From: a bacterium
GTDB taxonomy: Bacteria; Patescibacteriota; Patescibacteriia; HK-STAS-PATE-3
Direction: 5' to 3'
Assembly (NCBI GenBank): GCA_043800725.1
Contig: JAZDMR010000034.1
Coordinates: 4,374-68,373 of the forward strand
DNA: 64,000 bases
Positions 1-19,591 of this stretch are shown here, piece after piece. The notes beneath the pieces were generated by a model that saw nothing but the letters and a program-made list of their open reading frames with translations, was not told where the DNA came from and did not search any database. Each line of letters starts with the position of its first letter. Position 1 is the first letter of the stretch. The position numbers and the translations under genes are program-made.

Positions 1-632
1 GAGACCATCTTGGAAACCGGAGCTTGCCTAATCACTTCCTCCATGCCCGGCTCGGTAATATCCAAGGGCTGCCCCTCAGTCGAGGCGCCTAAATCAGTTT
101 CCGTGTCTTTCAGAGCCTCTTCAACCTCAGCCGATAAGCTTTCGTACTGCCGCAAGATGTATTTAATGCCCGATTCGGAAGCAATATGGTATTTGATTTT
201 CACATTATTTTTTCGAGCAATAAATTCGATCGCTTCTAAGGCCTTGAAGTCAGACGGATTAACCATGGCGACGCTTAGCTCGTCGGCTGATTTCTGAAAA
301 GACACCATGCGATAATTCTGAGCCAGCTCCTGAGGAATAATATTCAGTATTTCAGCTCTGACAATCCGGCCAAACAAGTCCATATAAGGGATGTTATAAA
401 GCTTGCCTTTGGCTTTGACAATATCCTCTTCCCGGATAGTATGAGAATTCAATAAAACAGCCTGCAATGGCTGATGGGCTGCCTTGGCTTTGGCAATTAA
501 TTCATCCAAATCTGCCTGAGTAACGATTTTTTCTTGAATTAGGGTATCAAGCAGCTCCTGAGGCATGCCCAAAACATCAACTGAAGCTGACTGGATAGCG
601 GCAGATGAATGGGCTGGTTTTGCCGGGCTCAC
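1..632 (-). CDS. pilB: Type IV pilus assembly ATPase PilB/GspE, N-terminal (GspII_E_N-like) part. The gene runs off the left edge, so only the N-terminal ~210 aa are present.
   Basis: The minus-strand translation from GTG at 632 (rc of 630-632) reads VSPAKPAHSSAAIQSASVDVLGMPQELLDTLIQEKIVTQADLDELIAKAKAAHQPLQAVLLNSHTIREEDIVKAKGKLYNIPYMDLFGRIVRAEILNIIPQELAQNYRMVSFQKSADELSVAMVNPSD..., the typical N-terminal domain of PilB/GspE secretion ATPases. A GAGGAG Shine-Dalgarno lies 8 nt upstream of the GTG. The GTG overlaps the TGA stop of the upstream ORF (GTGA), and an alternative ATG sits at 566. No stop codon occurs before position 1. The gene follows pilMNO. Confidence 0.6.
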   Translation of the reverse strand, partial: MSPAKPAHSSAAIQSASVDVLGMPQELLDTLIQEKIVTQADLDELIAKAKAAHQPLQAVLLNSHTIREEDIVKAKGKLYNIPYMDLFGRIVRAEILNIIPQELAQNYRMVSFQKSADELSVAMVNPSDFKALEAIEFIARKNNVKIKYHIASESGIKYILRQYESLSAEVEEALKDTETDLGASTEGQPLDITEPGMEEVIRQAPVSKMV

Positions 633-922
633 GGGATTATCTCCTCAAACGGGTTATCTCTGCCTGCATTCCCGATATTCACCGGCAGGTCGCCATAAGG
701 CTGAAGAGAACGATAGCGAGGGTCGTCAAAAAGATCATCGCCAAAATCCTTGATTATAAGCAAATCTCGACGAATAACCGAATCCTCAGTCGTAGTAGAC
801 GTGGTCGAGCTTGGCACCGCAATCCATAAGAAATAAAAGAGACCGCCGCCCACAACTATTATTACCAAGGCGATTATTAAAATAAGCGTGCGCTGACTGT
901 TGCTTTTTTGGACTAAGGCCAT
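629..922 (-). CDS. Small membrane-anchored protein (97 aa) in the pilus operon, PilP-position. Its C-terminus carries the NIGNAGRDNPF motif shared with the giant-protein family.
   Basis: N-terminal hydrophobic helix (LILIIALVIIVVGGGLFYFLWIAV). It sits between pilO and pilB and is translationally coupled to pilB. Its IGNAGRD motif matches 'EIGNAGRDI/LGNAGRDI' in ORFs 13302..16826 and 10790..11611. Confidence 0.5.
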   Translation of the reverse strand: MALVQKSNSQRTLILIIALVIIVVGGGLFYFLWIAVPSSTTSTTTEDSVIRRDLLIIKDFGDDLFDDPRYRSLQPYGDLPVNIGNAGRDNPFEEIIP

Positions 923-925
923 GCT

Positions 926-1606
926 TTATGTTTCCTCCTCAAAATAGAAAGTCCTCATGTTTATGGTGTATGTTTCTTTCTGCTCAGTTAGCTCTCCCGG
1001 ATTCCTGCTAAGAGCCTGGGCCGGATTGAAATTTAACGACTGAACATTGAATATCCGCAAGCTATTTTCGATATTGGTTAAAAATTCCTTAAAATGCTCA
1101 TAGGAGCGCCCTCCGCTCACTGAGATAGAAATATCAAATGATTTAAGTCCGGTATTGAGCAATAACGTATTCTGGCCCGCGGAGGTCGAGCCGGTATTTA
1201 CGCTCTGCTGGGAAGACGCGGCGCCCGGCTGACTCAGGCTGGCCGGAGCAATGGCAATGCTGTTCAGCTGCAAATCACTCTGCTCGACCAAATCATCAAC
1301 AATCACAAACAAATCGGCAATGTCGGACTTTTTGGGCAGTACCTGATCAAGCTCCTCCAAACTTCGCTTATTCAGGTCATCGTATCTATCCAGCATCTCC
1401 TCCACGCGGGTCAAATATTCTCCTCGATCCTCTAATAATTTCTGCTCGGTATTACGGTCGGATAAACCTAATTGCCGAATTTCATTTAACTCCGGTCCGA
1501 TTATAATAACATAACCAACAACCAAAATAATTACCGCCACCGCGATCAGAATGTAGCGGAACTGTTCGAAAATCAGCTTTTTAAAAGATATGCCAAACAG
1601 TTTCAT
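926..1606 (-). CDS. pilO: Type IV pilus assembly protein PilO-like (226 aa).
   Basis: Single N-terminal TM segment, then a coiled-coil region (EQKLLEDRGEYLTRVEEMLDRYDDLNKRSLEELDQ) and a periplasmic domain. Its start overlaps the pilN stop in an ATGA junction. It sits directly downstream of the PilM/PilN genes. Confidence 0.55.
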   Translation of the reverse strand: MKLFGISFKKLIFEQFRYILIAVAVIILVVGYVIIIGPELNEIRQLGLSDRNTEQKLLEDRGEYLTRVEEMLDRYDDLNKRSLEELDQVLPKKSDIADLFVIVDDLVEQSDLQLNSIAIAPASLSQPGAASSQQSVNTGSTSAGQNTLLLNTGLKSFDISISVSGGRSYEHFKEFLTNIENSLRIFNVQSLNFNPAQALSRNPGELTEQKETYTINMRTFYFEEET

Positions 1607-2943
1607 GGATTTGGATTAGTATTGGTAACTGTTGAGGAATTCGTGTTGGGATTTGATTGATTGGTGTTTAATACGGAAGAATTGGTGTTTAGATTGCCGG
1701 ACCTATTCGCGTTTGTCGACGCGTTGGTATTTAAGTTAGTTGAACTGTTCGTGTTGCTGCCGGTATTCTGGGGGAAGGTAAGATTGTATATTTCCGGTTC
1801 AAACCTTCCTCTGGGATAGCTTGCTTCGTCATAATAATAGATGTCCGGCACCAGAGTAGCGCTAATTGTAAAAGCTACTTGCCGGGCTACCACGCTGCCC
1901 GGCGGCAAATTCACATCAGTAACATCGGAGGCGGTCGCCGAATTGATCGAAACATTTGTAACAAAATCATCCGCTTGTTCCAAAAGCAGCAGCTGTCGGG
2001 CCGGCGAGGTAAAAGACCCTCCTAGAGCCGACAAGGTTATTTGTCCGCTCAAGCTACCGCTGAAAGCTCCGGTATAATAAACATCGTCAATAGTATAATC
2101 CTCCAGCTTACTAAAGAACTTTGTCCAATAAATATGCTGGTCAAGCAGCCCGGTAATAATTTGCAGCCTGGAATTTACGGCAATTGCCTCCTTTTGCTTG
2201 GGTTTAAGGTTTTGGATCTGGTCTTCGATGCCGGATCGCTCAGTCCTAAGATTCTGGATATCCTCGATTATCGAGGTGCGATAAATTGTCAGCAGCGCAT
2301 AAGCCCCGCCGATAACAAATATTGTGGCAAATAAAGTGATCCCCAGGCTGATTAATTTTGACTTCGGGTTAATTGATTGCTTGAAATCCGTAGGCAGAAG
2401 ATTTACTAGGAAGGACCGGTCAGTAGGCTTATCCGACTTTGCGGGCTTGGAAGTCAACGGCGGCAGGGGCGGAGTATCTTTTTTCTCCAGTTTAGGCTCT
2501 GGTGATTTTTTCGGCTTATTAATTGAAAAATCAGGTATCGCAGGCGGGGCCTGTTTTGTTAATTTAGGCTTGGATGGTTCTTTTCCTAGCATTGGCGTAT
2601 CAGACATATGAGGCAGGGGCGGGGTATTATCGGGATAAAGCTTTTGTTTATCAAGGCCAGCGAAAATATCTTCTGGATTTGGGGATTTATTCTGTTCAAA
2701 TTTAGGAATAGGCGGAGGTTTTATCGATTTGGGTTTTTGTTCTATCTCTTTTTCAATTTCATCTATCTTCTTTTTGCCACGTAAAGATTTCAGCCATACG
2801 GCAAAGCGCGAGGGTAGTTTTGGCTCTTTTGGGGCGGGTTCAACCTTTTTCGGGTCAGTTAACTTTGGAGCTAAAGGCTCACCGGCCTTTTTGTCCGTCT
2901 TTTCATCATTTTTCGTGTCTTTTAATAGATTTATATCAACCAT
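1603..2943 (-). CDS. pilN: Type IV pilus assembly protein PilN-like (446 aa) with a ~180-aa Lys/Pro/Glu-rich N-terminal extension and an Asn/Thr-rich C-terminal tail.
   Basis: TM segment (LISLGITLFATIFVIGGAYALLTIY) followed by a PilN-like periplasmic region (IEDIQNLRTERSGIEDQIQNLKPKQKEAIAVNSRLQIITGLLDQHIYWTKFF). It lies immediately downstream of pilM. The N-terminal 180 aa and the C-terminal NTN-repeat tail are low complexity. Confidence 0.55.
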   Translation of the reverse strand: MVDINLLKDTKNDEKTDKKAGEPLAPKLTDPKKVEPAPKEPKLPSRFAVWLKSLRGKKKIDEIEKEIEQKPKSIKPPPIPKFEQNKSPNPEDIFAGLDKQKLYPDNTPPLPHMSDTPMLGKEPSKPKLTKQAPPAIPDFSINKPKKSPEPKLEKKDTPPLPPLTSKPAKSDKPTDRSFLVNLLPTDFKQSINPKSKLISLGITLFATIFVIGGAYALLTIYRTSIIEDIQNLRTERSGIEDQIQNLKPKQKEAIAVNSRLQIITGLLDQHIYWTKFFSKLEDYTIDDVYYTGAFSGSLSGQITLSALGGSFTSPARQLLLLEQADDFVTNVSINSATASDVTDVNLPPGSVVARQVAFTISATLVPDIYYYDEASYPRGRFEPEIYNLTFPQNTGSNTNSSTNLNTNASTNANRSGNLNTNSSVLNTNQSNPNTNSSTVTNTNPNP

Positions 2944-2948
2944 GGGTG

Positions 2949-4046
2949 TTATACGATTTCTCTCATGGCCAGGCCGATGGCAACTGAAAACCTCGGGCCC
3001 AACTCATCTAAAACCGGCTTTAATTCAACCGGATAAATTACTCGTGACCAGGGATCGCCAATAAAGCTCTTAAGTTGCACGGTTTTTTCCAAATAATCTG
3101 ACAAGTTAGGTAAAAAAGCAGAGCCTCCGGATAATATGATTTTTTCAATGGGACGTTCTCCCTGGCTTTGGTAAAGCGATAGTATGTAGCGTATTTCATT
3201 TACTATGTTATTCATAACAAACTCAATTACTTTGGGTATCTGGCTGGTGCCGGCCTCGGTCAATACTCCGAAATCGCGCTTAATCTGCTCGGCTCTTTCC
3301 AAGTCGATATTCAGTCCATTGGCAATCGACTTCGTAATAGTGTCCCCTCCTACGTCAATGCTTCGATTAAGAAAAGGGAAACCATCCAAAATAACGCTGA
3401 TCTCGGTGGCGATTGCGCCGATATCAATAATCATAACAGCCGATTGGTCATTGCCTAATAAAGAACGCACTACGGCAAAAGATTCTGTCTCAAGGCTGAC
3501 AATTTCCAGCTCCGCCAGTTTGAATATATCAATATATCTTTTTACCAGATTCTTCGGAGCCGCCGTGATTAGAATCTTCAAGTTTTTCGGGCCTTGAATA
3601 TCACTTTCAATTTTGGGCTTTTTAAACTTTTTTTCTTTCTTTTCATTTTCAATTTCCGAGGGATCACGCAGAACTCGCCAATCCAAGACCATTTCATCAA
3701 TCGACATAGGGACGATTTTTTTTGCCTCCCAGCGGACCGCTGAATAAAGATCCTTTTTGGGCATGACCGGCAGGCTCAAAATCGAATTAAACACAGCAAA
3801 ACTAGGCAAAGCGGAAATGATTTTTTTGCTAGAAACCTTGGCTTTCTTCAGTACAGACTTGATATTCACTACCATCTGTTGAAGCGCCTCATCCGAATCA
3901 CTTTTTATTATCTCCGTCGGCTGTTCAATAAAACCGTAAGTTACTAATTTAGGCCGTCCGCCTTCATCAAACAACTCAACTGCCTTAATACTGGACGTGC
4001 CAATATCAATTCCCACATAACTCTGTTTTTTATTAAATAAAGGCAT
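2949..4046 (-). CDS. pilM: Type IV pilus assembly protein PilM (actin-like ATPase, 365 aa).
   Basis: N-terminus KQSYVGIDIGTSSIKAVEL (actin/FtsA-fold phosphate-1 motif), with further actin-fold motifs (MIIDIGAIATEISV, ILSGGSAFLPNLSDYL). It is the first gene of the pilMNO unit. Confidence 0.8.
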   Translation of the reverse strand: MPLFNKKQSYVGIDIGTSSIKAVELFDEGGRPKLVTYGFIEQPTEIIKSDSDEALQQMVVNIKSVLKKAKVSSKKIISALPSFAVFNSILSLPVMPKKDLYSAVRWEAKKIVPMSIDEMVLDWRVLRDPSEIENEKKEKKFKKPKIESDIQGPKNLKILITAAPKNLVKRYIDIFKLAELEIVSLETESFAVVRSLLGNDQSAVMIIDIGAIATEISVILDGFPFLNRSIDVGGDTITKSIANGLNIDLERAEQIKRDFGVLTEAGTSQIPKVIEFVMNNIVNEIRYILSLYQSQGERPIEKIILSGGSAFLPNLSDYLEKTVQLKSFIGDPWSRVIYPVELKPVLDELGPRFSVAIGLAMREIV

Positions 4047-4100
4047 CCCCTGATTATCTTCCTAATTTCTAATTTATTAAACTTGTAAAATTTCAAAAGA

Positions 4101-4129
4101 ATTATAGCACTTTTTTAAATAATTGGCAA
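4101..4129 (-). promoter_or_regulatory. Sigma70-type promoter for the pilM operon.
   Basis: On the minus strand there is a TTGCCA -35 element (rc of 4124-4129), an exact 17-nt spacer, and a TATAAT -10 element (rc of 4101-4106). An AGGAAG Shine-Dalgarno follows ~11 nt before the pilM ATG. Confidence 0.5.
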
Positions 4130-4134: not shown

Positions 4135-7100
4135 TTAAAAGGGTATTTCCTCCCTTATCCTGGGCAGGACTTGGGCGAAATCGCTAAATCCGGGGGGCGG
4201 ATTGGCAATTACCCTTCCGTCATAGGTTATTTCTTCGGCGGGCAACGGATCAGTCAAGGTGCCTCGGAAAGTTCTGCCAAATTTATACGAAGGCGAAATC
4301 ATTAAGCCCTGAGCTTGAAATGCCTTTTCATCAAGCGAATTCTCAATTTCAATTCCGTTAGTTTTATTAGTATATCCCGGGTCGCCAAAGGCAATATATG
4401 AACCGACAATCGTGCGCACGTTGCCGGTTATTATAATCGACCCTTTGACAATTATTCCCAAAGAAGCCAGATCGCGGATTTTATCAAAATTTTCCGCTTG
4501 ATAGACAATATTAACGTCAATCGTTAAATCACCCTGGACCACGATTGTGCCTGCCCCGGAAACAGAATTAGGATTGGTAATATCGCGATTATTAATTTTC
4601 CATTCAGTAATATAGCCTTCTCCTGAATCACACCGGCCAATAGTAAAATCATTATTGATATTATAAACAGTATTATCCAAATTAACTCCTATCGCGCATA
4701 AACCCAGCTCTGTTAAATTTTTATCATCACTATTTACTATTTTATTGCCATACTTATTTTTTCCATCGCCGATATCAGTAATTGTCCCATTCAAATCAAT
4801 ACTGCCTAACACATTGGTATAATTGTTTGACTCACTTGGGAAATAGATTGATTCATAGCCTTGCTGGAAATAAGGGCGATCCATATAACCCGTTTCCACT
4901 TCACCAAAACCCTGTCCATAAAGAGTGCAATAATTAGAAATAGTGCCTGCCGCACTGATCACATAAGTAGCGTTGCACTTGTCAGACGGCGCTGAAGGCG
5001 TGTTGGCGCTGCCGATGTCTGCCCGTGCATAAATATCCCCAAACTTGGTCTGGAGCCAGGCCTGGCTGTAATAATTAGTCCTGGAAAAATCAACCCAGCC
5101 CAATTCGCCTTCTTGCTCAGCGCTGTTTCCGCTCCAGCCAAAGCCGGTTACTTTTCCGGTAGCATCATCAATTGACACTCCATAAGAATCGCATGACGCG
5201 CAAGTATCGCAGAATATTGTGCCAAGACAGACCCCGCCATAAGCACTACACGCCATATCACCGTCAGATGCGCACTCCACCGTATGGTTTCCCTTACATC
5301 GACGGGTACATGATCCGCCGTCAGTCGAACACATATTGCATGATATTTTTGTTTCATCCGCACTATCGTAAACATCAGCTGTTGTATTACAAATTTTACA
5401 AACCTCTACTGTGCATGTTCCAGCTTCCGCATCTTCACATTCATTGCCGGAACACTGGATTGAGGTGTCTCCAGAGCAAAATGTGGCGCAGTTTTTACAC
5501 TCTCCAAATGGTGCAATCACGGCTGGGTTCGCGGTTACGTCCTCACCTCTTAATTTGATCCAGCCGCCGTCGTTTGCGTCTTGTTTTAACGATAATAATC
5601 TGCCCCAGCCCACAACTTTTCCCGTACTCGGATCAAACTTTGCTATATAATTCTGATTACCGTCATTAAAGGGCTGAGCAGGCGGAACGCCGGATTCTTC
5701 CTCAAATAATCCAACTGGCGCATATTTGTTAAAAGACAACCAGCCGGTTGACTGGCAAATATTGATGTTTTCAGAGCAGCGGCAATCCGTATCCTCATCA
5801 CATTCTACTAAATCATTTGAATCACATACTCCTTCTTCTTCACCTGCGGGTATATTGCAATCATCTTTAATATAGGCGTTGGGATCAGCATCACCCAGCC
5901 ATATATATCCGGCGATCGCTCCCTGATTGGCGCCGCTTCTTCTAATATTAACGCCATAAGTAAAGCCGGCGCTTTCGCAGTAATCCTGGTTGGCGCAGCT
6001 GCCGCTGCCCCAGCCAATAGAATCCCTGCTGTTATTGTTCGTGCTAGCACCCAGCCAAAGCCAGCCGAAAATATTGCCGGGAGTGCTGGTAATAATATTG
6101 GATTTTTGGCCAACCGCCCGCACCTCGGTTAAACTGGCCGCTGACACGCCATTTAAGTGTTCTCCATCATTATTGGAGTCTTGGCGCTCCCAGATATGGC
6201 CATTGAATTGGAATATGGCGCCGTTTTGTGAATCATTATCAATATTCCCTACAGCATAGGCATTATATAAATCCAGCGCCGGGTTATAAAAAGCGCTAAC
6301 ATCATTTATTTGGATATTTGCCACGGTTGTATGCTGAAGTTCCCAGAAACCCCTATCACTATCATAATCGTAAATTTGCCCCTTTCCTCCTGGAGTATAT
6401 GCTGACGCCCAAGCAAGATAGCGCGTCTCGCTTACTTTTATCGCCTCAATTCCGGTGAAAGACACATTACCTATTTCATAATCCAAGATCCAGGTATTAC
6501 CATTAATATCGCTATTCCGATAGATTTTCCCCTGATCAGTCACGGCCCAGACATGAGTTGGGTCAACTGCTTCAATGCCAAATACTCCTCCTGTCACATT
6601 CGCAGATGAGGAAAACATTAACTTTTCGTTTATTCCGGACAGCTTTCCATGACGAATTTTGCCATCGTTTTCACCTACAAAAACAACAATTTCAGAAGCA
6701 TCGTCTACCGCAGCAACTGCGGTAAGGTTGGCTCCCATAAAAATATCTTTATCAGGACAAGGCGCGACTGGATCGCAAATAATGCTGCTATTGCGCCAGT
6801 ACCAAATTCTGCCATTATTGCCCACGGCCCAAACCAAATATTGTGCTCCTGATTCATAATAAATTGCATCGACATCATTTAATGTCTCAGGATTTGCGCT
6901 CAAGGCATCATCATCGAATACTTCCCAAAAAGACCCATTATAAAACATCACAGTATCTCGGACTGGCTCTTCTGGCCCCTTATATAGCTGATCACCCACT
7001 ATCCAGCCCAAATATTTCCCATCACTGGGATTCTGAACAAACTTTACCGCGTTAAAGTTTGTCTTAACATCCTGATAAATCTTGGGCGCCTTTTGAACCT

Positions 7101-7215
7101 CCCATTCCAGTCCGGCTTGGGACTGATGAGCCAATAATATGCCGAAACCAGCCAAAATCACGGCGCTTAGCCCGCTGATGAAAATTAGCCTTTTTCTTTT
7201 TAAAGCGTAGGACAT
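4135..7215 (-). CDS. Giant secreted protein (1026 aa): N-terminal signal peptide, beta-propeller-like repeats, and a very Cys-rich central region.
   Basis: Signal-peptide-like N-terminus (MSYALKRKRLIFISGLSAVILAGFGILLAHQSQAG). Blade-like repeats (GNNGRIWYW, GENDGKIRHGK, DQGKIYRNSD). A Cys-dense segment (CDSNDLVECDEDTDCRCSENINIC ... CKNCATFCSGDTSIQCSGNECEDAEAGTCTVEVCKICNTT...). It is separated by 2 nt from the upstream gene. Confidence 0.7.
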   Translation of the reverse strand: MSYALKRKRLIFISGLSAVILAGFGILLAHQSQAGLEWEVQKAPKIYQDVKTNFNAVKFVQNPSDGKYLGWIVGDQLYKGPEEPVRDTVMFYNGSFWEVFDDDALSANPETLNDVDAIYYESGAQYLVWAVGNNGRIWYWRNSSIICDPVAPCPDKDIFMGANLTAVAAVDDASEIVVFVGENDGKIRHGKLSGINEKLMFSSSANVTGGVFGIEAVDPTHVWAVTDQGKIYRNSDINGNTWILDYEIGNVSFTGIEAIKVSETRYLAWASAYTPGGKGQIYDYDSDRGFWELQHTTVANIQINDVSAFYNPALDLYNAYAVGNIDNDSQNGAIFQFNGHIWERQDSNNDGEHLNGVSAASLTEVRAVGQKSNIITSTPGNIFGWLWLGASTNNNSRDSIGWGSGSCANQDYCESAGFTYGVNIRRSGANQGAIAGYIWLGDADPNAYIKDDCNIPAGEEEGVCDSNDLVECDEDTDCRCSENINICQSTGWLSFNKYAPVGLFEEESGVPPAQPFNDGNQNYIAKFDPSTGKVVGWGRLLSLKQDANDGGWIKLRGEDVTANPAVIAPFGECKNCATFCSGDTSIQCSGNECEDAEAGTCTVEVCKICNTTADVYDSADETKISCNMCSTDGGSCTRRCKGNHTVECASDGDMACSAYGGVCLGTIFCDTCASCDSYGVSIDDATGKVTGFGWSGNSAEQEGELGWVDFSRTNYYSQAWLQTKFGDIYARADIGSANTPSAPSDKCNATYVISAAGTISNYCTLYGQGFGEVETGYMDRPYFQQGYESIYFPSESNNYTNVLGSIDLNGTITDIGDGKNKYGNKIVNSDDKNLTELGLCAIGVNLDNTVYNINNDFTIGRCDSGEGYITEWKINNRDITNPNSVSGAGTIVVQGDLTIDVNIVYQAENFDKIRDLASLGIIVKGSIIITGNVRTIVGSYIAFGDPGYTNKTNGIEIENSLDEKAFQAQGLMISPSYKFGRTFRGTLTDPLPAEEITYDGRVIANPPPGFSDFAQVLPRIREEIPF

Positions 7216-7217: not shown

Positions 7218-10200
7218 TTATAGTTTACAGCAACGGTAAAAAGTCGGGTGTCTGGTGCTTGAATTTCTTCGGAGGCCATTTAGGAATTGTCCGGCCGGAC
7301 AGACAGAACCATCCGCGACACTTACCCAATTGCATTGTTCAGTAACATTCTGATCAGCGATCACGTCTTCGGTAACCTGCACCTCACCGGTAAAGTCGGC
7401 AGATATTGCGTTGGTGGCAAAGCAGTACATTTCCGCGCCCACGGGCTGAGGCAAGCTTGAATCATAAAATGCCTGGTCAATACAGCTTAATCCTGAGTTA
7501 TCAATATGGTGACCGATTGACATTGCTTCTGATCGCGAATCCTGGATATCTGCTCCTCCCGCAGCTAATAGCAAATTGCCCTGTCCATCAATCGCCTGAA
7601 TCTTGCATTCGTCAACATTCGGACCGGTCTCAAAACAATAACTTGCGTAAACCACATCCCCTGCCCCTTTAAAAATCCGATAATCAATATTGCCCACATC
7701 ATCGGCGATTTCCAGATCGCTTGCCCATTTCTTGCTCCCATCTGCGGTATTTATCCTGTTCATAAGCAACCTACCGTCGCTTTCTCTGCGCCAAACAGCC
7801 GTCAGTTCACTATCATCGCTGACCAGCAACTGATGATTGATATCTGATGAATTAACGCTTTTACCAGGACCGAGATTAAGTCCGCCGGCCCAGGGCTGGG
7901 AGCCATCACTGACATTGAGCTTAAAAATCCATAGATCATTATTGGGGAATTGAGCTCTGGCATAGACCGCATTGTTATAATAAATCAAGCCTGCGCCGTT
8001 TAAAGTACTGCCGGTAACGTCCACGGTCCAATCTGCTGTTCCATTATTAAGAATATGGCGAGCTCTTAGGGTGCTGACTCCCGAGGTGTATATGATTACC
8101 AGCCCGCCCTGGCCATCTTCAGTCATGCCCTGTAAAACAGTGCCTGGTTCGGATGCCAGCTCCTTGGCGGTATTTGAACCGACAGTGCAACCTAAATCAG
8201 TGGACCACATCCGAGCGCCGTCGTCTTTATTTATTTTCATGCCGCAAATCTTGCCGCCATTATAAAAAGCAAATAATAAATTGTTAGCATTGGCAGATAG
8301 GCTCATATATTGGCCCGAATCAGCTTGGGATACGCCATAAGCGCTGTTTACGGCAGTATCCCAAATTGTGTTACCACTTGCGTCTACTCTGGCCATAAAA
8401 TGCTCGCGACCAATGCCCGGGCAATTGCTGGCCCAGCCCACATATGCCCCGTCGCCGCCATCCGAAATAAAACCAATATCATGGCCTGGCTGGCCGCAAC
8501 GATCCAGCGATGGGTCAAGAGCATTGCCCTCAGCCATGGTTCCGTCATCATCAACTGAAAACACTCTTGCCTGATTATCGGGATTAGTTCGTATGTAAGC
8601 GTACAGCCGGCTGGTTACAGTATTTTGAACCGGCCCTTGCCCGAACGGACCGGCAAAGACGCTGACTTCTGAAGTAAACGGCGAAGGCGACCACTCAGGA
8701 GTAAAATCATAATTTGAGGAATCCGTGTTTCTGGCAATCAAGGTAGGGTTGTCCGCAGAATTATTGACCGCCGTAACAGCCTGTCCGGCTATTGGATTGG
8801 TGAAATAGCCCGCGTAACAATTTTTTAACAAGCCGCAAGAAATCACCTCTCCGTAAATTCCGCTGCCGCCTGAATTAAAAGCCGCTCCGGCAAAACGACC
8901 GGCAATCCCCGCTCCAATCCAGGGTGAACCGTTTAAGCCCAGTCCGGTCGCTTCCAAGGTCGGCTTGCCGTCAATGCCTCCGGATAAATGCAGCCTTTGG
9001 CGATCAGTCGCTGCTATGCCCTGCAGGAATGAACCTGCTTCCGAAGTGTTTGGCCTAACATATATTGACCCTGAAGACAGCCAATCAATATTTATTTCGG
9101 TCTCAAAAGGATCATCAACTAATTTGCCAATTTCCAAAGAATCTGAATTTGTCACTCTGATGGTGCCATCGTAGATGGTTAATTTTTGCGGATCTGGGGA
9201 GCCAGTAGGATTAACCGTCCACTGGGCACCCGCGTTATTAGTCTGATTCAGCTCGTTAACGCAAGTAGCCGTCAGGGTCCATTGACCTTCTTTATCAATC
9301 ACTCCCGGATATTTCAAGCGAAAGGTTGAACCGGCCGAATTGGAAAAAGACACATTATTATAAATTACACTTGTTGGAGAGGCTAGGGTAAATCGCACAT
9401 CTTTTGTTGATACTGTGCCGGTATTGCAGGTGGTTTGAACGTGGGTAATCAAACCGCCGAATTGGGCATTTATACAGCTGCTGTAATTTAAACCTCCATC
9501 AATGCTGCAAGTCGGACTAGTAACAGTAATCGTCTCATCTGGGGGCAGGCCGGAGTTACCTGCTATCACCAAGACTTTTCCGGGATTTGCTACATCGATA
9601 TTCTGCATTTCCACATAAAGCAAACCATTATAAACCCCCAGCAGGCCTGATGCGTTTGCGGGCAGATCGCTGTTGAAAACCAGGCTGCCGTCTGTGGCGC
9701 TTAAAGCTTTTAATGACGTTCCGTTAATAAATAAATAAACAATTCCATTATCTGACACAATTAATTCAAGCCCTTTTTCAAGCGGGCCAAGGCTGCCGCT
9801 ATCCCAGGCTTCCGATCCATTATTGGCATTGAAAAAGATATATCTGGCCTGCCCGGCTGTTGATTCAAATGTATAGTACAATTTTCCATTCCAATAAGCG
9901 CCGTCCCATACTATTCCGTCATAATCTCCGGCTAATTCATGGTGCCAGTTTTTCACACCATTACTGGCATTATAAGAATTTATCCCGCAGACATTTCCAT
10001 AAACAGCGCCGCTATTATAAATTGGGCTATTATTATTGCTATCACCAGCTCCGCAATTTTCCTCAACAGTCCTCCAAATTAATAAGCCATTATCAGCCTC
10101 AAGAGCCACCATACCATGTACACCACCGTCATGATACTTTACAAATAATTTACTTTCACCGTACGCCGGGGTGGCGATTAACTGGGTATCATCACCTGCC

Positions 10201-11631: not shown

Positions 11632-13320
11632 TTAGCGAAGACCTCCGGCATCCCCCTTGGCCATAATTGGAGAGCTGCCGCCGCATTCGGCATCTTCACA
11701 AACATTTACGCTTTCGCCACCATGATTTGAAAAAATACAACAGTAATCATATGGCGTATCATTGGCTACGCAAAATGGATCACTGGGACAAAGTAAGTTA
11801 ATGTGAAATCCTCTACTTCTCCACTCAGATTCGTTTCCATTATTATCCAGAGCGGAAATTGAGTAATAATAGTTTTCTCCCTGCGTAAGGGCCGGGTCAT
11901 CGTCTTTATAGCCGCCTATCAGAGATTCGCCAATTTTTACGCTATTGCGATAAATATTAAAATGGCTAAATCCGCTGTTTATACCTTCGGGCAAGTCGGT
12001 TTTCGGATGAGTCCAACCCAAGAGCGTATATTCTTCATCTCCTGGTATGGTGCCGTCGGGCAGATGAAGGTTGATACCAATTTGCGAGGTAATTGGAATA
12101 GGCGGAGTCTCATCAACAACCGACCCCGCTTCTAGGAAATTGTCGCCCGAAAACAGGAAAGTCCCGGATCCCTGGGTAGCGCCCCCGACACGATAGTGAT
12201 AATCTAGCGTTGAATCAATATTATCTACCAAAACCGAGTGGCTTATTCTATAAACTGGATCAGCAAGCTTACTGCCATAGTCCTCTGTCAGGCCATGCTC
12301 TACCACTGAGTACATAGGCCAATTCGAGGTCCAGGTAAATTCAGCACTGGTTGGGGTCTGCCATTCAGCAGTAATCTCGGATATTACCGGACAATCTGCT
12401 GGACAATCGATCGGATTCTCGGTACTTTCGGTACACACGCCATCACCGCAAGTAATTTCCGGAACGTGGCCATTAGGATCTCCTAGGACAGCGCTTAAAA
12501 AATGGCTGGAACCGTAAACAGCCGTGATGCCGGTTTGTAGGGTTGTGGGATATTCAGTCTGCAAAAACAAATAATCATTAACCCCTGAACCTTCGGGCCA
12601 GCTTGTACGGCAGTCACCGGGAGGATCTTCATCTTCCTCAAGCAAACACAGTTGAGACCCGGCAGTAATTTCAACGTTGCCGGTAAAATAGCCAGCATAG
12701 GCATTGGGATTGCCATTGTTGCCGCCAAAAATGCCATAGGCTAAAGCGTCTGATGATACTGACCCAGAATGAGCAGCCACACCCAAAACGCCGTAGCTCA
12801 ACCCCGGTAAGGCAACTACGGAACTAGACAGTCCGTAAAATCCATATGTATCTATAAGGGTTGGAGCGATGGCTCCAGAATGTAGGGCAAAGTTAGCATC
12901 ATCAGCCGCCTGGAAAGTGATTCCGCCTTGGATATGAATAAAATCAGAATCAGCACTAGTTGGAGATAAGTGAAGGATAGTGCCAATGGATCCGCCGGGC
13001 TCCCAGCCATTGATACAGGAATCGCCTAGGCAAAACTGCTCGTCTCCGTTTAACATTACGTTCAAGTTTCCTGAGGTAATAATTTCTCCAAGACTTGTCA
13101 AGCTTCCACTAGTATTCAGCTGACTGGATAATTTGAGAGGACCCCAACGCGTTTGGAGATCCGAGCCACCTGTAAGAATGGGCGCCTGGATATTGCCCTC
13201 CGGCGGATTTAATATTGGTTCATTAAAAGCCTGGGCAGTCCAAGCTAACACCAAGCCCGCTATAAAAAATAAACTGATACTGATGATACTTATGTTTCTA
13301 TTCATGGGTTTCCACAGCAA
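11632..13320 (-). CDS. Secreted protein (562 aa) with a Cys-bracketed N-terminal motif, an FN3 (PAP-N-like) domain and a CGDGxC...DC motif.
   Basis: Signal peptide (ISISLFFIAGLVLAWTAQA). Motifs FCLGDSCINGW and AYAGYFTGNVEITAGSQLCLLEEDEDPPGDCRTSWP. ITCGDGVCTESTENPIDCPADC. FN3-like region AEFTWTSNWPMYSVVEHGLTEDYG...DYHYRV. Confidence 0.65.
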   Translation of the reverse strand: MLWKPMNRNISIISISLFFIAGLVLAWTAQAFNEPILNPPEGNIQAPILTGGSDLQTRWGPLKLSSQLNTSGSLTSLGEIITSGNLNVMLNGDEQFCLGDSCINGWEPGGSIGTILHLSPTSADSDFIHIQGGITFQAADDANFALHSGAIAPTLIDTYGFYGLSSSVVALPGLSYGVLGVAAHSGSVSSDALAYGIFGGNNGNPNAYAGYFTGNVEITAGSQLCLLEEDEDPPGDCRTSWPEGSGVNDYLFLQTEYPTTLQTGITAVYGSSHFLSAVLGDPNGHVPEITCGDGVCTESTENPIDCPADCPVISEITAEWQTPTSAEFTWTSNWPMYSVVEHGLTEDYGSKLADPVYRISHSVLVDNIDSTLDYHYRVGGATQGSGTFLFSGDNFLEAGSVVDETPPIPITSQIGINLHLPDGTIPGDEEYTLLGWTHPKTDLPEGINSGFSHFNIYRNSVKIGESLIGGYKDDDPALTQGENYYYSISALDNNGNESEWRSRGFHINLLCPSDPFCVANDTPYDYCCIFSNHGGESVNVCEDAECGGSSPIMAKGDAGGLR

Positions 13321-16300
13321 TATATTCGATCATTTTCCCCGGGAGGGTTGTTTTCATAGCCGGAAATAAATCCATTATTAGGACAAACCAAATCCGCCCA
13401 AACCAGCGTTTCCCAATGGCACTCGGAAAAAAGCAGCTTTTCTGATTGGATATCCCCATCAGCCACGAAGTTGCCTTCAAATAATGCCGAAACATTATTC
13501 TCGGGACTGGCGCCGGCGCTGTTTTCAACTTTCAGGGCCGGGATGATCGAATCGCTTGATTCTGATAATAATCCTACTTCGTTGTTGCCTGCAAAATAAC
13601 CGGCGGCGCAGCCTCCTGCCGCGGCGCAGCTTACCACTTCGCCGTAAACAGCCGAGCCGCCCGCATTGTTATTGCTACCACTGAAGAAAGAAGCCACGGC
13701 ACTGGCGCCGTTACTGCTATTTTGGGTGCCGCTACCCTGGGCAAGGATTGTCGGCTGACCGGCAATACCGTAAGGAAAATGCAATCTCTGATCAGTCGTG
13801 CTGTCAGTCCCCTCCCAGAAGGCTCCCGCCAATGAATTATTTGGCCTAAGATAAATATTGCCCGTGGAGGCGATATCCCGCCCGGCATTCCCGATCTCCA
13901 GAGTATCACCGCTTGACTGGGCTATCTGAATAACGCCTTGATAGACTGACAGTTTTTGATTGGCAGAAAACGGCCAAGCACCAACGTCCCACTGCGCCTG
14001 ACTGGTGTCTTGCTGGCTGGCGGAATCCTTGCAAATTGCACTGATAGTCCATTGGCCTTCTTCATTTATCAATTTGGGATTATGCAGCGTGTAAGTATTA
14101 CCCACAACGTCACTGGCGATTAAATCTTCATATTTATAGCCAGAAGGAGCATTTAGGGTAAATTGTACCTGGGCAATATCGGCCGCCGCAGCTCCCACCG
14201 GGGAAATATAAACGTCAGTATTGATTCCGTCTTCCTCTTGTCTTTCCCAGACAATATTATTCCCGTTGATATGGGGAGCCGAATCAAAGCGAGGATGATC
14301 AGTTATTTGAATATCTCCGCTGTCATCCGCCGTGCCGAATAAACCGTCCGGCCCCAGGTCATAAACCATGACTTCAAAAAAATCAAAATCAACATCATCA
14401 TATCGCGAAAAAACAATCTTGGTCCCTGACATGCTTGGCAAATAATCAGTCAGTCCGGAAGTTGTCAGGCGGACCGTTCCAATATCATCCGTCGTATCCG
14501 GTGAACCGTCCGGCCCCAGGTCATACATATAGATATCAAAATTACACGTATCACATTCCCGAGCGGTCCACAGTACATATCGGGAATAAATTACCGGCCG
14601 CATCCCGGTAAGCGAATTTCCTTGAGGAAAATCAGATATTTCAAATGCTTCAGCATTGGTTAGATCCACCACAAATATTGAATCGTCTTCCGGGCCGCCT
14701 CCTTGGACACGGACTACGCCGTATCTGCCTCCCAGCTCCCCAGCATCCGCGTCAGTATGGCCAATCGTGTCAAAATCCGTTACTTCCGTGTCTCCCAGAT
14801 CATCACCAGTGCCCAATCTGCCATCAGGGCCCACATCATAAATGAACATATGGCCGTCGGGATTATTTAAAAATCGCTCATACAAAATATATCTGCCGTT
14901 AAAGCCAGCGTCATCAAGCTGATCTACCCGGAGACTGCCCGGATCAGTTTCTCCGGCTGCCCAGTTATACACCCAAATATAATCTTCCGCCCCAACATTC
15001 CCCGCAAAAAAAACATGGTCATCAGTAACATCCTCAACTAGGGCTGAACCTTGAGCGATTATTTCTGCTTCAGTGCCATCGTCCGGGGTGCCGAATAATT
15101 TATCTGCACCTAAATCATAACGGCTAATATAGCCGCTCGCTTCATAAATAACGTACTGATTGGTTAAATAGGGAAATCTCCAAGTCGTATCAGCCACATC
15201 ATTTAGCGCGCCTTCAGAAAATGGCTGGGCAGCGCCCGGGTCACAGCTAACTCGGACATGGCTTAATACGTTGCCATACTGCGCTTCGCTGCATAAGCCG
15301 AAGTCCGCCCCGCCATTGATGCTACAGATGGGATCGGTCACTGTGGGCAAGCTCCCAAGACAGTACTCTTGCACAGCCACTCTTATACCGCCGGGCTCGC
15401 CATAACCATGGCCAATGCACGATAGGCTATCATTTCCAACAATTTTATTATGTATGCCAAATTGCGGTTGTTGGTTATACGCTTCACTGCTTGGATCCAC
15501 AGTAATTCCATTACCGGGGAATATCTTTTGCCCTGCTCCGTCAAATCCTTGTATGGAACAGTCCCACTCATTGCCAATATCTTCACAAATTGCAAAATAT
15601 GAAACGCTCTGGGGTCCGGTAAAGTGATTAACAATACCTTGAAAGGGGGTTCTAACATAAATTAGCTTATCACTGGGCCAGACTTTTGTTCCATCCTCCA
15701 TATTGATTCTGTTGGTATAATTACTGCTATCCGCACTCAGCTCCCATTGTAAAGAAATCGCAGTATTATCAACCTGGACAATACGCGGATTATGAAAAAC
15801 ATTAGATACGTTATACGGTTCAGCCCAAGGCTGAGACCCATCAGCCACCTTTACGCGATCAATAAATAATTCTTTATTTGGCACTATGTCCTCGGTCCAG
15901 ATCATATAAACCGAACCATCGTAATAAAATGCACTGGTAACGCTTACATCAGGATCAGCTGTGAAGTCAACGCTCCATGCTAAATCACCGGCCGAATCAA
16001 TTCTATGCGCGCGCCCGGAACCAGACAGTATAATAATCCCGCCCTGTCCATCAGAAACCACTGTATGGACATACTCTCCCGTGAGTAGCCTACGGCCATC
16101 TTGCCCACCACATACTTGACTAGTCCACATACTTGCACTTGTCGTGCGATTTATTTTTACGCCACAGACATAATTTCCGTCTCTAAAGGTCATTATGGCA
16201 TGGCCATCACTTGCTAAAACTACATGGTTCCAGGCAGGAGATGTGTCTGTACCAAGCTGACCAGGACCTATCTCCCAAATTATGCCTCCATTTCCATTAA

Positions 16301-16826
16301 GCCGGGCAAGATATATATTATCTCCGTCAAATATAATACTCTTAGAAGAGGCGACATAAGCGCCATCTAAACCATCTGATATCATCCCCTTTTTGCGCTC
16401 ACCACCAACGGAAAATAGCTCTCGGTCCAAACCAAACGAATTGCCTTCAACTGAGGTGCCATCATCATTTACTCGCACCGGATGAAAATGATCATCAGGT
16501 CCTGGCTCGGAAACTGAGCCTTCATATAGATATAATCGACTGGTAGGGGTGTTTTGCAGTGGTCCGCTTAACATTCTATCTTGGTCATCGGCAATAGAGG
16601 AAAAATAAAGCGGCGGATCCCACTGCGGCACCAAAGAAAAGTCGGCTCGGGCCACCTCTGTTTTATTAATCACATAAACAACCAGTAACACACTGGCCAT
16701 CATCAAGCTAATGCTAATAATCACGGCCAACCGGATTTTTTTCATTATTGGATTTTTTGCGTAATTATCTGGCATAGGAATAAAATTACCAGCCCCCGCC
16801 GCCTTCCCAGCCGCCGGGATCTTCAT
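13302..16826 (-). CDS. Giant secreted protein (1174 aa) with a beta-propeller-rich N-half and the shared C-terminal module; ends ...DRIYCCGNP.
   Basis: TM/signal segment (LAVIISISLMMASVLLVVYVI). Repeated DGxxDDxGxxxxTD-like segments. C-terminus LEIGNAGRDIASTGNIYLRPNNSLAGAFWEG...VYGEVVSCAAAGGCAAGYFAGN.... The N-half is homologous to the C-half of ORF 7218..10805. Confidence 0.7.
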   Translation of the reverse strand: MKIPAAGKAAGAGNFIPMPDNYAKNPIMKKIRLAVIISISLMMASVLLVVYVINKTEVARADFSLVPQWDPPLYFSSIADDQDRMLSGPLQNTPTSRLYLYEGSVSEPGPDDHFHPVRVNDDGTSVEGNSFGLDRELFSVGGERKKGMISDGLDGAYVASSKSIIFDGDNIYLARLNGNGGIIWEIGPGQLGTDTSPAWNHVVLASDGHAIMTFRDGNYVCGVKINRTTSASMWTSQVCGGQDGRRLLTGEYVHTVVSDGQGGIIILSGSGRAHRIDSAGDLAWSVDFTADPDVSVTSAFYYDGSVYMIWTEDIVPNKELFIDRVKVADGSQPWAEPYNVSNVFHNPRIVQVDNTAISLQWELSADSSNYTNRINMEDGTKVWPSDKLIYVRTPFQGIVNHFTGPQSVSYFAICEDIGNEWDCSIQGFDGAGQKIFPGNGITVDPSSEAYNQQPQFGIHNKIVGNDSLSCIGHGYGEPGGIRVAVQEYCLGSLPTVTDPICSINGGADFGLCSEAQYGNVLSHVRVSCDPGAAQPFSEGALNDVADTTWRFPYLTNQYVIYEASGYISRYDLGADKLFGTPDDGTEAEIIAQGSALVEDVTDDHVFFAGNVGAEDYIWVYNWAAGETDPGSLRVDQLDDAGFNGRYILYERFLNNPDGHMFIYDVGPDGRLGTGDDLGDTEVTDFDTIGHTDADAGELGGRYGVVRVQGGGPEDDSIFVVDLTNAEAFEISDFPQGNSLTGMRPVIYSRYVLWTARECDTCNFDIYMYDLGPDGSPDTTDDIGTVRLTTSGLTDYLPSMSGTKIVFSRYDDVDFDFFEVMVYDLGPDGLFGTADDSGDIQITDHPRFDSAPHINGNNIVWERQEEDGINTDVYISPVGAAAADIAQVQFTLNAPSGYKYEDLIASDVVGNTYTLHNPKLINEEGQWTISAICKDSASQQDTSQAQWDVGAWPFSANQKLSVYQGVIQIAQSSGDTLEIGNAGRDIASTGNIYLRPNNSLAGAFWEGTDSTTDQRLHFPYGIAGQPTILAQGSGTQNSSNGASAVASFFSGSNNNAGGSAVYGEVVSCAAAGGCAAGYFAGNNEVGLLSESSDSIIPALKVENSAGASPENNVSALFEGNFVADGDIQSEKLLFSECHWETLVWADLVCPNNGFISGYENNPPGENDRIYCCGNP

Positions 16827-18468
16827 ATTGTAGATAACTTTCAGGAATTTCTTTTAACACAACAGGTGAACCGCCCGGCAGGGGTTCCCCACAGCCCAGC
16901 TCCCCATAGCACACGGGGTACAAAGGATTGGTGCAGTTTGAATTGCTGACGCAAGCGGTCGGCACATGGATTATTTCTGCATTAGATGGCTCTGACTCAT
17001 TGCCCAGCATATCAACCGCAGTAATCTCATATGAATAGTAGGCATCCTGGTCAACAAAATAATCAATATACCAAGCACTGGTCGTAGTATCGAAGGGAAT
17101 GCCCTCACGGTAAATAACAAAATGCGAAAAACCAGAACCCCCCGGATTATCCTGCAAAGTCTGGTACCAAGCGAGAGGTATCTGATCGGGCTTCGGCGTA
17201 GTGTTATGTAAATTGGCCGGCGGGAAAGGAGGGGTCGTGTCAATTAAAGAAGTAAAATTTAAAACACTTGATGCTCTGTAAGCGCCCGAATCAGCGATTG
17301 ATTGAACCTGATAATAATAAGCGGTCGAATAATTCAGGCTGGACAATAATACCGCGTGATCATAGGCCAGGGTCTCATCAACAATTTCGCTACCCAGGTC
17401 CGGGGTAGTGCCATAATTAACAACCGTAGAAGCAGGCGCGCTGGTTTGCCAGGTGATTACCGCCGTTCCATCCGTAATATTGGTAGGTGATACCTTATAA
17501 ACTGTAAAACAATCAACTTCGCAAGTAAAAATGGTTTCGCCGTTATTGCAGCTGCCGTCTCCGCAGGTAATTCCTATGCCTAAACCGGACGGATCGCCGC
17601 CCAGAATAAGGCTGGTAAAGACTGAGGTCGAGCCAGGACTCAAATCAACATTGCCCTGCTGGTTGGTTTCAGGGTCAAGCTTCACAAAATCGCCCTCCAT
17701 TTCTCCTGTGGGCCATTCATACTTACAATCTCCGGCAAAATCCAGGCAACCGTCAATTTCTACCTTACCCTTGAAATAAGCTGCGTAGGCCGGACCGACT
17801 AATGACGGGGCAGTTCCCCCAACACCTATTGAGAAGGGACTATTTGAACCAGCAACTCCATAAACGCCAGCTGACAAGTGGGCGGGCAGAGTGTCTCCGC
17901 TGCCCGCATACCCCATAATTGCGTGAGAAAGATTGGAACTCGAACGTCCGGCTTTGGCATACAAAGCTATCGGGCTCCCACTTTCATTTATATCGCCTTC
18001 GATAATCATATAACCCTCTTTCTCTTTCGTTGGATCAGGATCGCCCAATCTGATAAAGCCCAAGTCCGGATCAACCGGATTAATATGAACAAAATTACCT
18101 TCTTCAAAATCAAAATTGTTCTTACAAAGTGCTCCATCTCCGGTGTCGTTGATGCAAATTTCCCCGTCGTCATCTGGCAGGTCGGGAGATACTCGAAAAT
18201 TTTCATCTACTGATAACAGATTATTTGTTTGAATGCCCTGATCCAGAACTTCCAAGGTATTTTTAATAGTCAAATCTCCCTGAACGGTTTGAGGTGTTAC
18301 TGAAGTATTCAGAGGCGCTTCAGTGGTCCCCCCCCAAGGAGCCGCGCCAGCCCCGTCATTCCAGACAGGATCAACCCAGGCAGCTCTGACATATGAAATG
18401 CCAATAAATAAACTGACTAAAACAAGACCGGTAATCACAGAGTATTTTATTTTATGCTGAATAGTCAC
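16786..18468 (-). CDS. Secreted protein (560 aa), paralog of 11632..13320 and 18491..19591, with an FN3 (PAP-N-like) domain.
   Basis: Signal peptide (VITGLVLVSLFIGISYVRA). Motifs ICINDTGDGALCKNNF and AYAAYFKGKVEIDGCLDFAGDCKYEWP. ITCGDGSCNNGETIFTCEVDC. FN3-like region TAVITWQTSAPASTVVNYGTTPDLG...YYYQV. Confidence 0.65.
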   Translation of the reverse strand: MTIQHKIKYSVITGLVLVSLFIGISYVRAAWVDPVWNDGAGAAPWGGTTEAPLNTSVTPQTVQGDLTIKNTLEVLDQGIQTNNLLSVDENFRVSPDLPDDDGEICINDTGDGALCKNNFDFEEGNFVHINPVDPDLGFIRLGDPDPTKEKEGYMIIEGDINESGSPIALYAKAGRSSSNLSHAIMGYAGSGDTLPAHLSAGVYGVAGSNSPFSIGVGGTAPSLVGPAYAAYFKGKVEIDGCLDFAGDCKYEWPTGEMEGDFVKLDPETNQQGNVDLSPGSTSVFTSLILGGDPSGLGIGITCGDGSCNNGETIFTCEVDCFTVYKVSPTNITDGTAVITWQTSAPASTVVNYGTTPDLGSEIVDETLAYDHAVLLSSLNYSTAYYYQVQSIADSGAYRASSVLNFTSLIDTTPPFPPANLHNTTPKPDQIPLAWYQTLQDNPGGSGFSHFVIYREGIPFDTTTSAWYIDYFVDQDAYYSYEITAVDMLGNESEPSNAEIIHVPTACVSNSNCTNPLYPVCYGELGCGEPLPGGSPVVLKEIPESYLQYEDPGGWEGGGGW

Positions 18469-18490
18469 AAATTCTTTTTATTAAAAAAAT

Positions 18491-19591
18491 CTAGCGGCAA
18501 TCGACCGGACAAGTGCTATGGCTCTCGCCATTTCCCCCATAATTACATAGTCCGTCGCCGCAGGTTATTGATACTGGAGTAGACGGTAACGGCTCGCCAA
18601 GTACAAATTGCCCGGTTTTGGCCGAGCCTTCCACTTTTACTTCACCGGTTTGAAATACCGGCGTGGGCGAATCTTGGACCTTGACCAAAGAATCATCTGC
18701 TATCGGCCCCCAGTTGCTCGCGTTGCGGCAGTCGCCGTTTAAACAAAGATCTCCTTCAACTCCAACCCGTCCGTCAAATCGTCCTGCCCAAGACACAGGA
18801 TCTTCATTAAACCCACCGTCTGAGCCCCAAACGCCCCGAGTTATATTATTCGGCGTACAAACACCAGGCAGACAAGGGTCAGGATCATCCTCTACCAAAC
18901 AAGAGACATTAGGAGTTGACCCGCCTTGGCAATAAGCCGCATTAGTTGCCAGTCCAGCAATGCCATAGGTAGCAAGGTTGTTATTAGCACATATACCATC
19001 ATTGCAGTCTGAATCTTCATCACAAGGATTGCCATCACTCTCTCCACCAGAACAAAAAAGGCTAGCACTTTCCCCAACAATAGCCGCGGTACGATCTCCG
19101 GTGGGCTGATCAGCAGTGGCTTGTATGCCAAACTGATTGGCTAAAGGAATTATTTTTGAATTACTTTCAGGTCCAGCTGCCAGACTGGTTAAGCTGGGGG
19201 TACCTAAATCAGCCGTACCTGGATTTAAATGCACATAATTACCTGTTAAAGATCCCCAGCTTGAGATACACGCGTCATTTAAGCACAATTGCTTTCCATC
19301 AGCTATTTGTATATCGCTGTTGGTGTTTAATGTTGTTGTGTTTATGGTGTTTTGAATTTCCAGATTCCCCTGGACAATTAATCCGCCTTGTTTGGTTTGA
19401 GCTACATGGGTAGATGCTAAATTCTCATCACCAGCAATGATTGGCTGAGCCGTGGTCGAGTTCGGGGCGGTTTGGTCCGGTTCTGACCAAAAAGCCAAAC
19501 CCTGGCCAATTCCAAAAACCAGAGCTAATAGTAATATAGCGGTTATTAGGCCATATCGCTGGCTTTTAAGATTGAACCGGCGATTAAGCAT
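18491..19591 (-). CDS. Secreted protein (366 aa), smallest member of the paralog family; ends with ITCGDGLCNYGGNGESHSTCPVDCR.
   Basis: Signal peptide (LITAILLLALVFGIGQGLA). Motifs QLCLNDACISSW and WAGRFDGRVGVEGDLCLNGDCRNASNW. It is the first gene after the divergent promoter region. Confidence 0.6.
   Translation of the reverse strand: MLNRRFNLKSQRYGLITAILLLALVFGIGQGLAFWSEPDQTAPNSTTAQPIIAGDENLASTHVAQTKQGGLIVQGNLEIQNTINTTTLNTNSDIQIADGKQLCLNDACISSWGSLTGNYVHLNPGTADLGTPSLTSLAAGPESNSKIIPLANQFGIQATADQPTGDRTAAIVGESASLFCSGGESDGNPCDEDSDCNDGICANNNLATYGIAGLATNAAYCQGGSTPNVSCLVEDDPDPCLPGVCTPNNITRGVWGSDGGFNEDPVSWAGRFDGRVGVEGDLCLNGDCRNASNWGPIADDSLVKVQDSPTPVFQTGEVKVEGSAKTGQFVLGEPLPSTPVSITCGDGLCNYGGNGESHSTCPVDCR

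Follow-up and report, generated by a model that had tools for sequence, protein, structure and literature searches.

Patescibacteria are mostly uncultured episymbionts in which type IV pili are almost universal, and in Saccharibacteria these pili mediate host binding; to our knowledge, the source of the specificity of Patescibacteria pili is largely unknown. The closest described systems include the PilY1/PilC proteins of Pseudomonas, Neisseria and Myxococcus, whose C-terminal propeller domain is presumably that of the family Neisseria_PilC (PF05567). Within Patescibacteria, the PilX1 and PilX2 proteins of Saccharibacteria TM7x, which combine accessory domains (a jelly-roll and a 7-bladed propeller) with non-PilD signal peptides, have been proposed to act as host-binding tip adhesins (PMC11623550), and this was the only work found in the literature on PilY1-like or cassette systems in Patescibacteria. 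Here, these systems are compared with a locus in a stretch of 64,000 nucleotides (nt) from a bacterium of the Patescibacteriota (GenBank assembly GCA_043800725.1, contig JAZDMR010000034.1, positions 4,374 to 68,373), hereafter the window, in which a cassette of seven genes, named A to G, adjoins the type IV pilus genes pilM, pilN, pilO and pilB. Judged from sequence comparison, this is on balance probably the core type IV pilus locus of a Patescibacteria (candidate phyla radiation, CPR) bacterium close to Kerfeldbacteria-like lineages, equipped with an accessory giant protein, G, and with variable adhesin-like partners.

All open reading frames (ORFs) called in the window between 629 and 19591 lie on the minus strand. 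The original prediction had the cassette follow the pilus operon on the same strand; the common strand was confirmed and the order was not, because with all genes on the minus strand the cassette lies upstream of pilM and not after pilB. Transcription runs in the order A-B-C-D-E-F-G-pilM-pilN-pilO-ORF97-pilB, where ORF97 encodes 97 amino acids (aa). The predicted ORF coordinates hold, with A to G encoding 366, 560, 1174, 562, 273, 1195 and 1026 aa, as does the tight packing of the cassette, in which neighbouring genes overlap (with ATGA among the overlaps) or lie at most 22 nt apart; between G and pilM there are 88 nt. Inspection by eye also agreed with the claim that all seven products are secreted or anchored: N-terminal hydrophobic segments are present in 7/7, with AxA-like sites in most.

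A link between cassette and pilus is made by G (4135..7215, minus strand; 1026 aa). Related loci were collected by scanning species-representative genomes with a PilM alignment, which gave 80 Patescibacteria loci (Kerfeldbacteria and relatives) with PilM 45–76% identical, and the adjacency of G was counted over the 76 loci whose sequence extends far enough upstream. A gene encoding the conserved C-terminal domain of G (~400 aa) lies at most 450 nt upstream of pilM in 61 of these 76 loci and ~1–4.5 kb upstream in four more. This adjacency holds even where PilM is no more than 45% identical and the surrounding genes are different, which would be difficult to account for without functional coupling of G and the pilus. 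Behind its signal, G consists of a propeller-like N-terminal region, three GWxW...GWxxF repeats with Cys-rich spacers and the C-terminal domain (aa 618–1025, nt 4141–5364), with the motif ...GLxxAxxFxFxR...PAExxxYDGRxxANPPPGLxDxxxxLP. The repeat, of the form G[WF]xW...(I/L)GW(I/V)xF, occupies aa 367–459, 464–555 and 618–700; it is found in all G-family proteins, directly after the signal peptide in the shortest members, and matches no known family. Members of the family range from about 500 to >3300 aa and have Sec-type N-termini throughout, the part that precedes the conserved region varying from about 0.1 to 3 thousand aa. The C-terminal domain has no Pfam match and no PDB sequence match at E ≤ 1; weak matches to DUF7305 occur in 3 of 23 G homologues, and the literature search returned no paper mentioning DUF7305.

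The strictly conserved place before pilM, together with the conserved C-terminal domain, would also suit a structural role within the pilus machine, that of an envelope-spanning or wall-anchoring component replacing the missing PilP/PilQ/TsaP-type parts in the unusual CPR envelope, and the surveyed loci list no secretin or PilP-family gene. However, lengths from ~500 to >3300 aa and hypervariable N-terminal regions characterise adhesins rather than machine components, and beyond its signal peptide G has neither a transmembrane (TM) segment nor a wall-binding domain; we consider such a structural role improbable. As the accessory pilus component that we prefer to see in it, G would attach to the pilus or its machine through the conserved C-terminal domain and would present the variable N-terminal region for target binding. 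A to F would then be co-expressed, exchangeable adhesin or fibre proteins working with G in the recognition of hosts or surfaces.

These partners, a lineage-variable array of Cys-rich and beta-rich secreted proteins, fall into two families whose members gain and lose propeller, Ig/FN3 and other domains by shuffling. For the cassette proteins, Pfam was scanned at E ≤ 0.1 and paralogy was assessed by all-against-all blastp. The seven genes had been described as paralogous, which is true in part: A, B and D form one family, C, E and F share a module, and G matches neither group. Both kinds recur upstream of G in related genomes. The full set A–G followed by pilMNO-ORF97-pilB is present in CP060223.1 (L001) and GCA_040960315 (L009), so that the predicted occurrence of the cassette beside pil genes in relatives is borne out. 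On the same strand upstream of G, genes for the module or its N-terminal sub-domain were found in 10/55 loci and A/B/D-type genes in 19/55. In distant loci, variable arrays that differ in gene number lie between G and a divergent LemA-M48-ClpB flank, and GSGLDADxLDG-type motifs are found in remote relatives encoded at other loci. Two metagenome loci (L095 and L096) that were found by GNAGRDIA and not by PilM show the same succession of ClpB-M48-LemA, an array, and then G and pilM.

A different account of these arrays is that A to F, perhaps together with G, do not belong to the pilus but are surface or envelope proteins of a general kind (fibres, surface-layer-associated proteins or adhesins) that stand beside the pil genes by inherited order or shared regulation. 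It is consistent with their Sec-type, non-prepilin signals, with the occurrence of relatives elsewhere in genomes, with the similar set of giant secreted proteins that precedes an unrelated cluster resembling a type IV secretion system (T4SS) in the window, with a possible separate promoter before pilM, and with tail-fibre-like motifs (AYAGYFxGxV) and weak tail matches in PHROGs. It does not readily explain why G stays beside pilM down to 45% PilM identity in a changing neighbourhood, or why N-sub-domain and A/B/D genes recur at one position and not at random sites. We regard this account as unlikely, though by no means far-fetched, and return to the reading of G and its partners as pilus accessories.

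Several findings weigh against that reading. The G–pilM gap contains a promoter-like site, TTGCCA-17-(TG)TATAAT (4101..4129, minus strand), which as a consensus match agrees at 11/12 positions and has an extended −10, and which permits separate transcription; pilMNO-ORF97-pilB may therefore be transcribed apart from the cassette from this putative promoter, and shuffled sequence contains at least as many promoter-like sites in total as this region does. Two N-sub-domain proteins, P0009 and P0010 (L011 and L012), are encoded away from pilM, and the gene of P0010 directly follows a sortase gene, which hints that some proteins with this sub-domain are wall-anchored. The full A–F set is limited to a narrow clade, so its conserved synteny could reflect recent common ancestry. 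The Pfam scan found no PilY1 or known adhesin homology in the cassette and, in particular, no PilY1/PilC-type family for any of the seven proteins, which had been called PilY1-like. No ORF of at least 40 aa in the 64-kb window has the prepilin motif G[FMYWIL][ST][LIV][IVLM]E. Structure prediction of the module by AlphaFold2 was too poor to use, with a predicted local distance difference test (pLDDT) of 39.8 (6 sequences) or a pLDDT of 55.6 and a predicted template modelling score (pTM) of 0.28 (19 sequences). The proposed association of cassette and pilus is drawn from gene neighbourhood and not from physical association.

The N-terminal domain that defines the A/B/D family spans ~310 aa in the alignment (A~D, E = 3e-17; A~B, E = 4e-15; B~D, E = 5e-38; blastp). 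Its shortest member, A (18491..19591, minus strand; 366 aa), is a secreted protein with 16 Cys that consists of this domain alone, WxEP...QTKxGxL...AGxFxGRV...TCGDGxC, and matches nothing in Pfam, NCBIfam or PHROGs. In B (16786..18468, minus strand; 560 aa) the domain is followed by FN3-like domains, with a Pfam match to Pur_ac_phosph_N at aa 325–406 (E = 5e-8), and by a Cys-rich tail; D (11632..13320, minus strand; 562 aa) likewise joins the N-terminal domain to FN3-like domains. B and D have weak PHROG tail matches, and searches of Pfam, NCBIfam, PHROGs and PDB sequences gave no informative match for the family, nor for G or ORF97. Across the cassette, the number of Cys per protein ranges from 6 to 32, and a DsbA-like gene is present within the window. 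Pilins or minor pilins are not found among A to G, whose N-termini look Sec-type with AxA-like sites and have no class III signal; the idea that they are non-canonical pilins was rejected on the absence of the prepilin motif and on signal peptides that look cleavable. Remote homology between G, the module and the A/B/D family was also considered and rejected (hhalign probabilities of 0.4% and 8%).

The module itself is a unit of ~215 aa, KLSxYxG...LExG(loop)...IY[LIF]RP...QRL...GxV.SC....C.[AG]G.F...C.W...C...xCC. Four proteins had been credited with it, of which three stand, since blastp and a profile hidden Markov model (HMM) recover it in C, E and F (E = 1e-96, 2e-99 and 2e-66, respectively) and the HMM has no match in A, B, D or G. 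The supposed fourth, D, contains only AYAGYF (aa 207–212) and YDYCC (aa 524–528); it was rejected as a module protein, hhalign aligning 14 columns at AYAGYF with a probability of 8%. The minimal form is E (10790..11611, minus strand; 273 aa), a TM or signal segment followed by the module, with KRLSIY, LGNAGRDI, IYLRP, GEVSDCGALMTCYAGYF and a C-terminal C..W..C..YCCEL. C (13302..16826, minus strand; 1174 aa) consists of a signal or TM segment, a repeat-rich domain X (aa 54–492), a propeller-like region of YDLGPDG repeats and the module (aa 941–1173, nt 13305–14006). In F (7218..10805, minus strand; 1195 aa), a signal is followed by a PQQ_2/BamB-like propeller, an Ig-like region, the N-terminal and central parts of the module, domain X and a four-Cys mini-domain. 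The module of F is split into aa 525–698 (nt 8712–9233; HMM positions 10–174) and aa 1130–1195 (nt 7221–7418; HMM positions 171–236) because of an insertion of ~435 aa, domain X (aa 686–1131), which is homologous to C aa 54–492 (E = 8e-46); in the F orthologue of L001 (751 aa) it is unsplit. As to the two PQQ-like propellers that had been predicted, that of F is supported by a PQQ_2 match (PF13360, E = 8e-26, BamB-like, aa ~130–420) and that of C may be present: C has no PQQ match in Pfam and reaches 35.8 bits, under the cutoff of 85, with the Methanosarcina-type propeller repeat TIGR04275.

As had been suspected, the module belongs to no recognised family: nothing in Pfam, NCBIfam, PHROGs or PDB sequence profiles matches it, and Foldseek of the low-confidence module model against PDB gave nothing under E = 3. 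The family is rare: when 1.84 billion representative proteins were searched with its HMMER profile, 131 of them matched at E ≤ 0.001, and only 17 of these do so over the full length (E ≤ 1e-30). About 100 cover the N-terminal ~80 residues alone, KLxVYxGV...LE[LI]GNAGRDIASTGxIYxRP, and a few are confined to the C-terminal four-Cys mini-domain; because most matches cover one part only, the module is taken to be put together from sub-domains that belong to a small, uncharacterised family. Other searches were less productive. Word-indexed homologue searches returned 4, 3 and 6 proteins, a metagenome pattern scan gave 230 pattern matches of which 0 were confirmed, and a metagenome scan with the alignment of the N-terminal sub-domain gave four loci.

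The link between these proteins and the pilus had first been drawn from a heptapeptide. ORF97 (629..922, minus strand), a 97-aa protein with a single TM segment encoded after pilO, ends in ...NIGNAGRDNPFEEIIP, and its IGNAGRD is real: aa 83–89 (nt 656–676) are identical to C aa 978–984 (nt 13875–13895), and GNAGRD is also present in E. On this basis the module proteins could dock on the pilus machinery, with ORF97 carrying the same motif as partner or mimic. The exact 7-mer with C and 6-mer with E would speak for such docking, as would the rarity of the match among shuffled versions of ORF97 (0.16% share a 7-mer with the cassette) and the location of both motifs in locally conserved segments. 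However, conservation of the two is not coupled. Small ORFs after pilO in ~55 loci, 28 of which were aligned, define an ORF97 family with the motif LP[VI]xxGxxG[RKN]xNPF, in which G87, N90, P91 and F92 alone are (near-)invariant, whereas variation is free at N, A and D within IGNAGRD; what the family constrains is G..G[RKN].NPF, and NPF is absent from the modules. In the two full-cassette loci the modules keep LGNAGRDI while ORF97 reads DLGDVGRTNPF (L001) and DRGAIGRSNPF (L009). F-type modules have longer, variable loops in place of GNAGRD, and hhalign of the ORF97 and module profiles gives a probability of 0.25%, with the best alignment away from the motif. Moreover, three exact 7-mers turn up among the 693 pairs of unrelated proteins in the window, and therefore one such match somewhere is expected. 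Docking through this motif is thus very improbable, and the association of the giant proteins with the pilus stands on the adjacency of G to pilM and on the recurring arrays, not on the motif from which it was first proposed. The identity of ORF97 and C appears to be a coincidental overlay of two conserved but unrelated patterns, GxxG[RK]xNPF on the side of ORF97 and, in some modules, the beta-hairpin loop LGNAGRDI; an exact heptapeptide common to neighbouring proteins can be coincidence. The two other chance 7-mers are VQGDLTI and NLAITSG (B aa ~62–68 with G aa ~880; p298 with a 1524-aa ORF). Where other modules have the GNAGRD loop, F reads IGKLVDDPFE (aa 559–568, nt 9102–9131, minus strand), an echo of DNPFE in ORF97 that is probably due to chance because F orthologues differ there (GALSGDANID in L001, GDLGGGSYLD in L007/P0008).

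Of the genes pilM-pilN-pilO-ORF97-pilB, pilM and pilO were confirmed by Pfam, and the others were assigned on other evidence. PilM (2949..4046, minus strand; 365 aa) matches PilM_2 (PF11104) with E = 4e-45 and 154.7 bits, and PilO (926..1606, minus strand; 226 aa) matches PF04350 with E = 3.5e-6 and 27.7 bits, above the cutoff of 22. The pilN-like ORF (1603..2943, minus strand; 446 aa) has no PilN match in Pfam at E ≤ 0.1 and is a candidate PilN by its PilN-type start, MVDINLL, and by its position between pilM and pilO, constant in related loci; it has one TM segment and low-complexity regions rich in K/P and in N/T. PilB was identified from the translation of its N-terminus, as the gene runs off the start of the window (1..632, minus strand) from a likely GTG start at 632 that overlaps the stop codon of ORF97; in related loci its orthologues have the domains MshEN and T2SSE, and genes for a response regulator, PilT and PilC come next. 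ORF97 sits where pilP lies in other operons, and no Pfam match at E ≤ 1 rose above noise, PilP (whose domain we take to be PF04351) included. Like PilP, it is small, membrane-anchored, encoded directly after pilO and provided with a short, strongly conserved peptide containing Pro and Phe, the counterpart in PilP being an RDPF-like motif. Unlike PilP, it has a TM helix (N-terminus MALVQK) in place of a lipobox, the lipobox Cys being absent, and at ~97 aa it is too small for the PilP beta-sandwich domain. One homologue, P0007 (JGI 3300048072), is labelled 'flagellar basal body-associated protein FliL' by its source; the label is likely spurious, the protein being a small one with a single TM segment.

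Beyond the cassette, its left flank is a divergent block on the plus strand, p172-LemA-M48 peptidase-(two unknowns)-ClpB (19791–25898), and the ClpB-M48-LemA flank is conserved in many related loci (L001, L009, L015–L021, L095 and L096). Genes for DNA uptake and recombination are found not far from the pilus locus: a ComFC-like gene (DZR_2 and Pribosyltran; 25938–26642), RecG (29571–31628) and a RadA-like gene (32658–34001). Further on, the window holds a T4SS-like cluster of Gram-positive/CPR type on the minus strand (34096–46245), in which are encoded a protein with SLT and T4SS_pilin domains (34096–35292), a DsbA-like thioredoxin (35289–35927), a second T4SS_pilin protein (37234–38367), a VirB4-like TraG P-loop/AAA_10 ATPase (39824–41836) and PrgI (42493–42999). 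Directly upstream of it, on the same strand, are four giant ORFs of 1065, 1548, 1524 and 1629 aa (46260–63924), which gives the window a second case where giant secreted proteins stand ahead of a surface machine; the 1524-aa ORF has Big_7 and FN3/Pur_ac_phosph_N domains resembling those of B and D.

Mainly of use to those who study CPR biology or type IV pili, these results present G and its variable, domain-shuffled partners as concrete and testable candidates for host recognition. Three unannotated families have been defined, namely the G C-terminal domain, the module with its N-terminal sub-domain, and the ORF97 family with GxxG[RK]xNPF. The type IV pilus locus, specific to its lineage, would represent a known kind of system, and what is new would be its protein families, with functions proposed from their sequences. 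A more far-reaching proposal, speculative and rather unlikely as a whole, is that G and the exchangeable A/B/D- and module-type proteins make up a Patescibacteria-specific, non-pilin, Sec-exported tip or host-recognition complex, which would replace the PilY1/minor-pilin priming complex and set the host specificity of the episymbiont by rapid domain shuffling.

The cassette can be set beside three kinds of described proteins. AGYFxGxV-type motifs occur in tail-fibre-like proteins of CPR and other bacteria, and a likeness to such secreted proteins is seen in xAYAGYFxGxV, present both in the A/B/D family and in the module; it is a likeness of motif only, and no library gave a family-level match. 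With PilX1 and PilX2, compared here by description, the locus shares its origin in Patescibacteria and the presence of large pilus-locus proteins with accessory domains; however, PilX1 and PilX2 have pilin-like 'lollipop' N-terminal helices and are encoded among pilin genes, whereas A to G have cleavable-looking signals (PMC11623550). The PilY1/PilC proteins are likewise large, Sec-exported non-pilin proteins of pilus clusters, in which a conserved C-terminal domain is joined to a variable N-terminal region and a beta-propeller may be present. They differ from G in that G lies upstream of pilMNO and not in a fimU-pilVWXY1E minor-pilin operon, linkage to minor pilins not being seen in a window without a prepilin-motif ORF, and in that the propellers of this locus (PQQ_2/BamB-like in F) occupy variable accessory positions instead of the conserved part. 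By analogy, the resemblance of G to tip adhesins of the PilY1 or PilX type would be one of function and not of homology.

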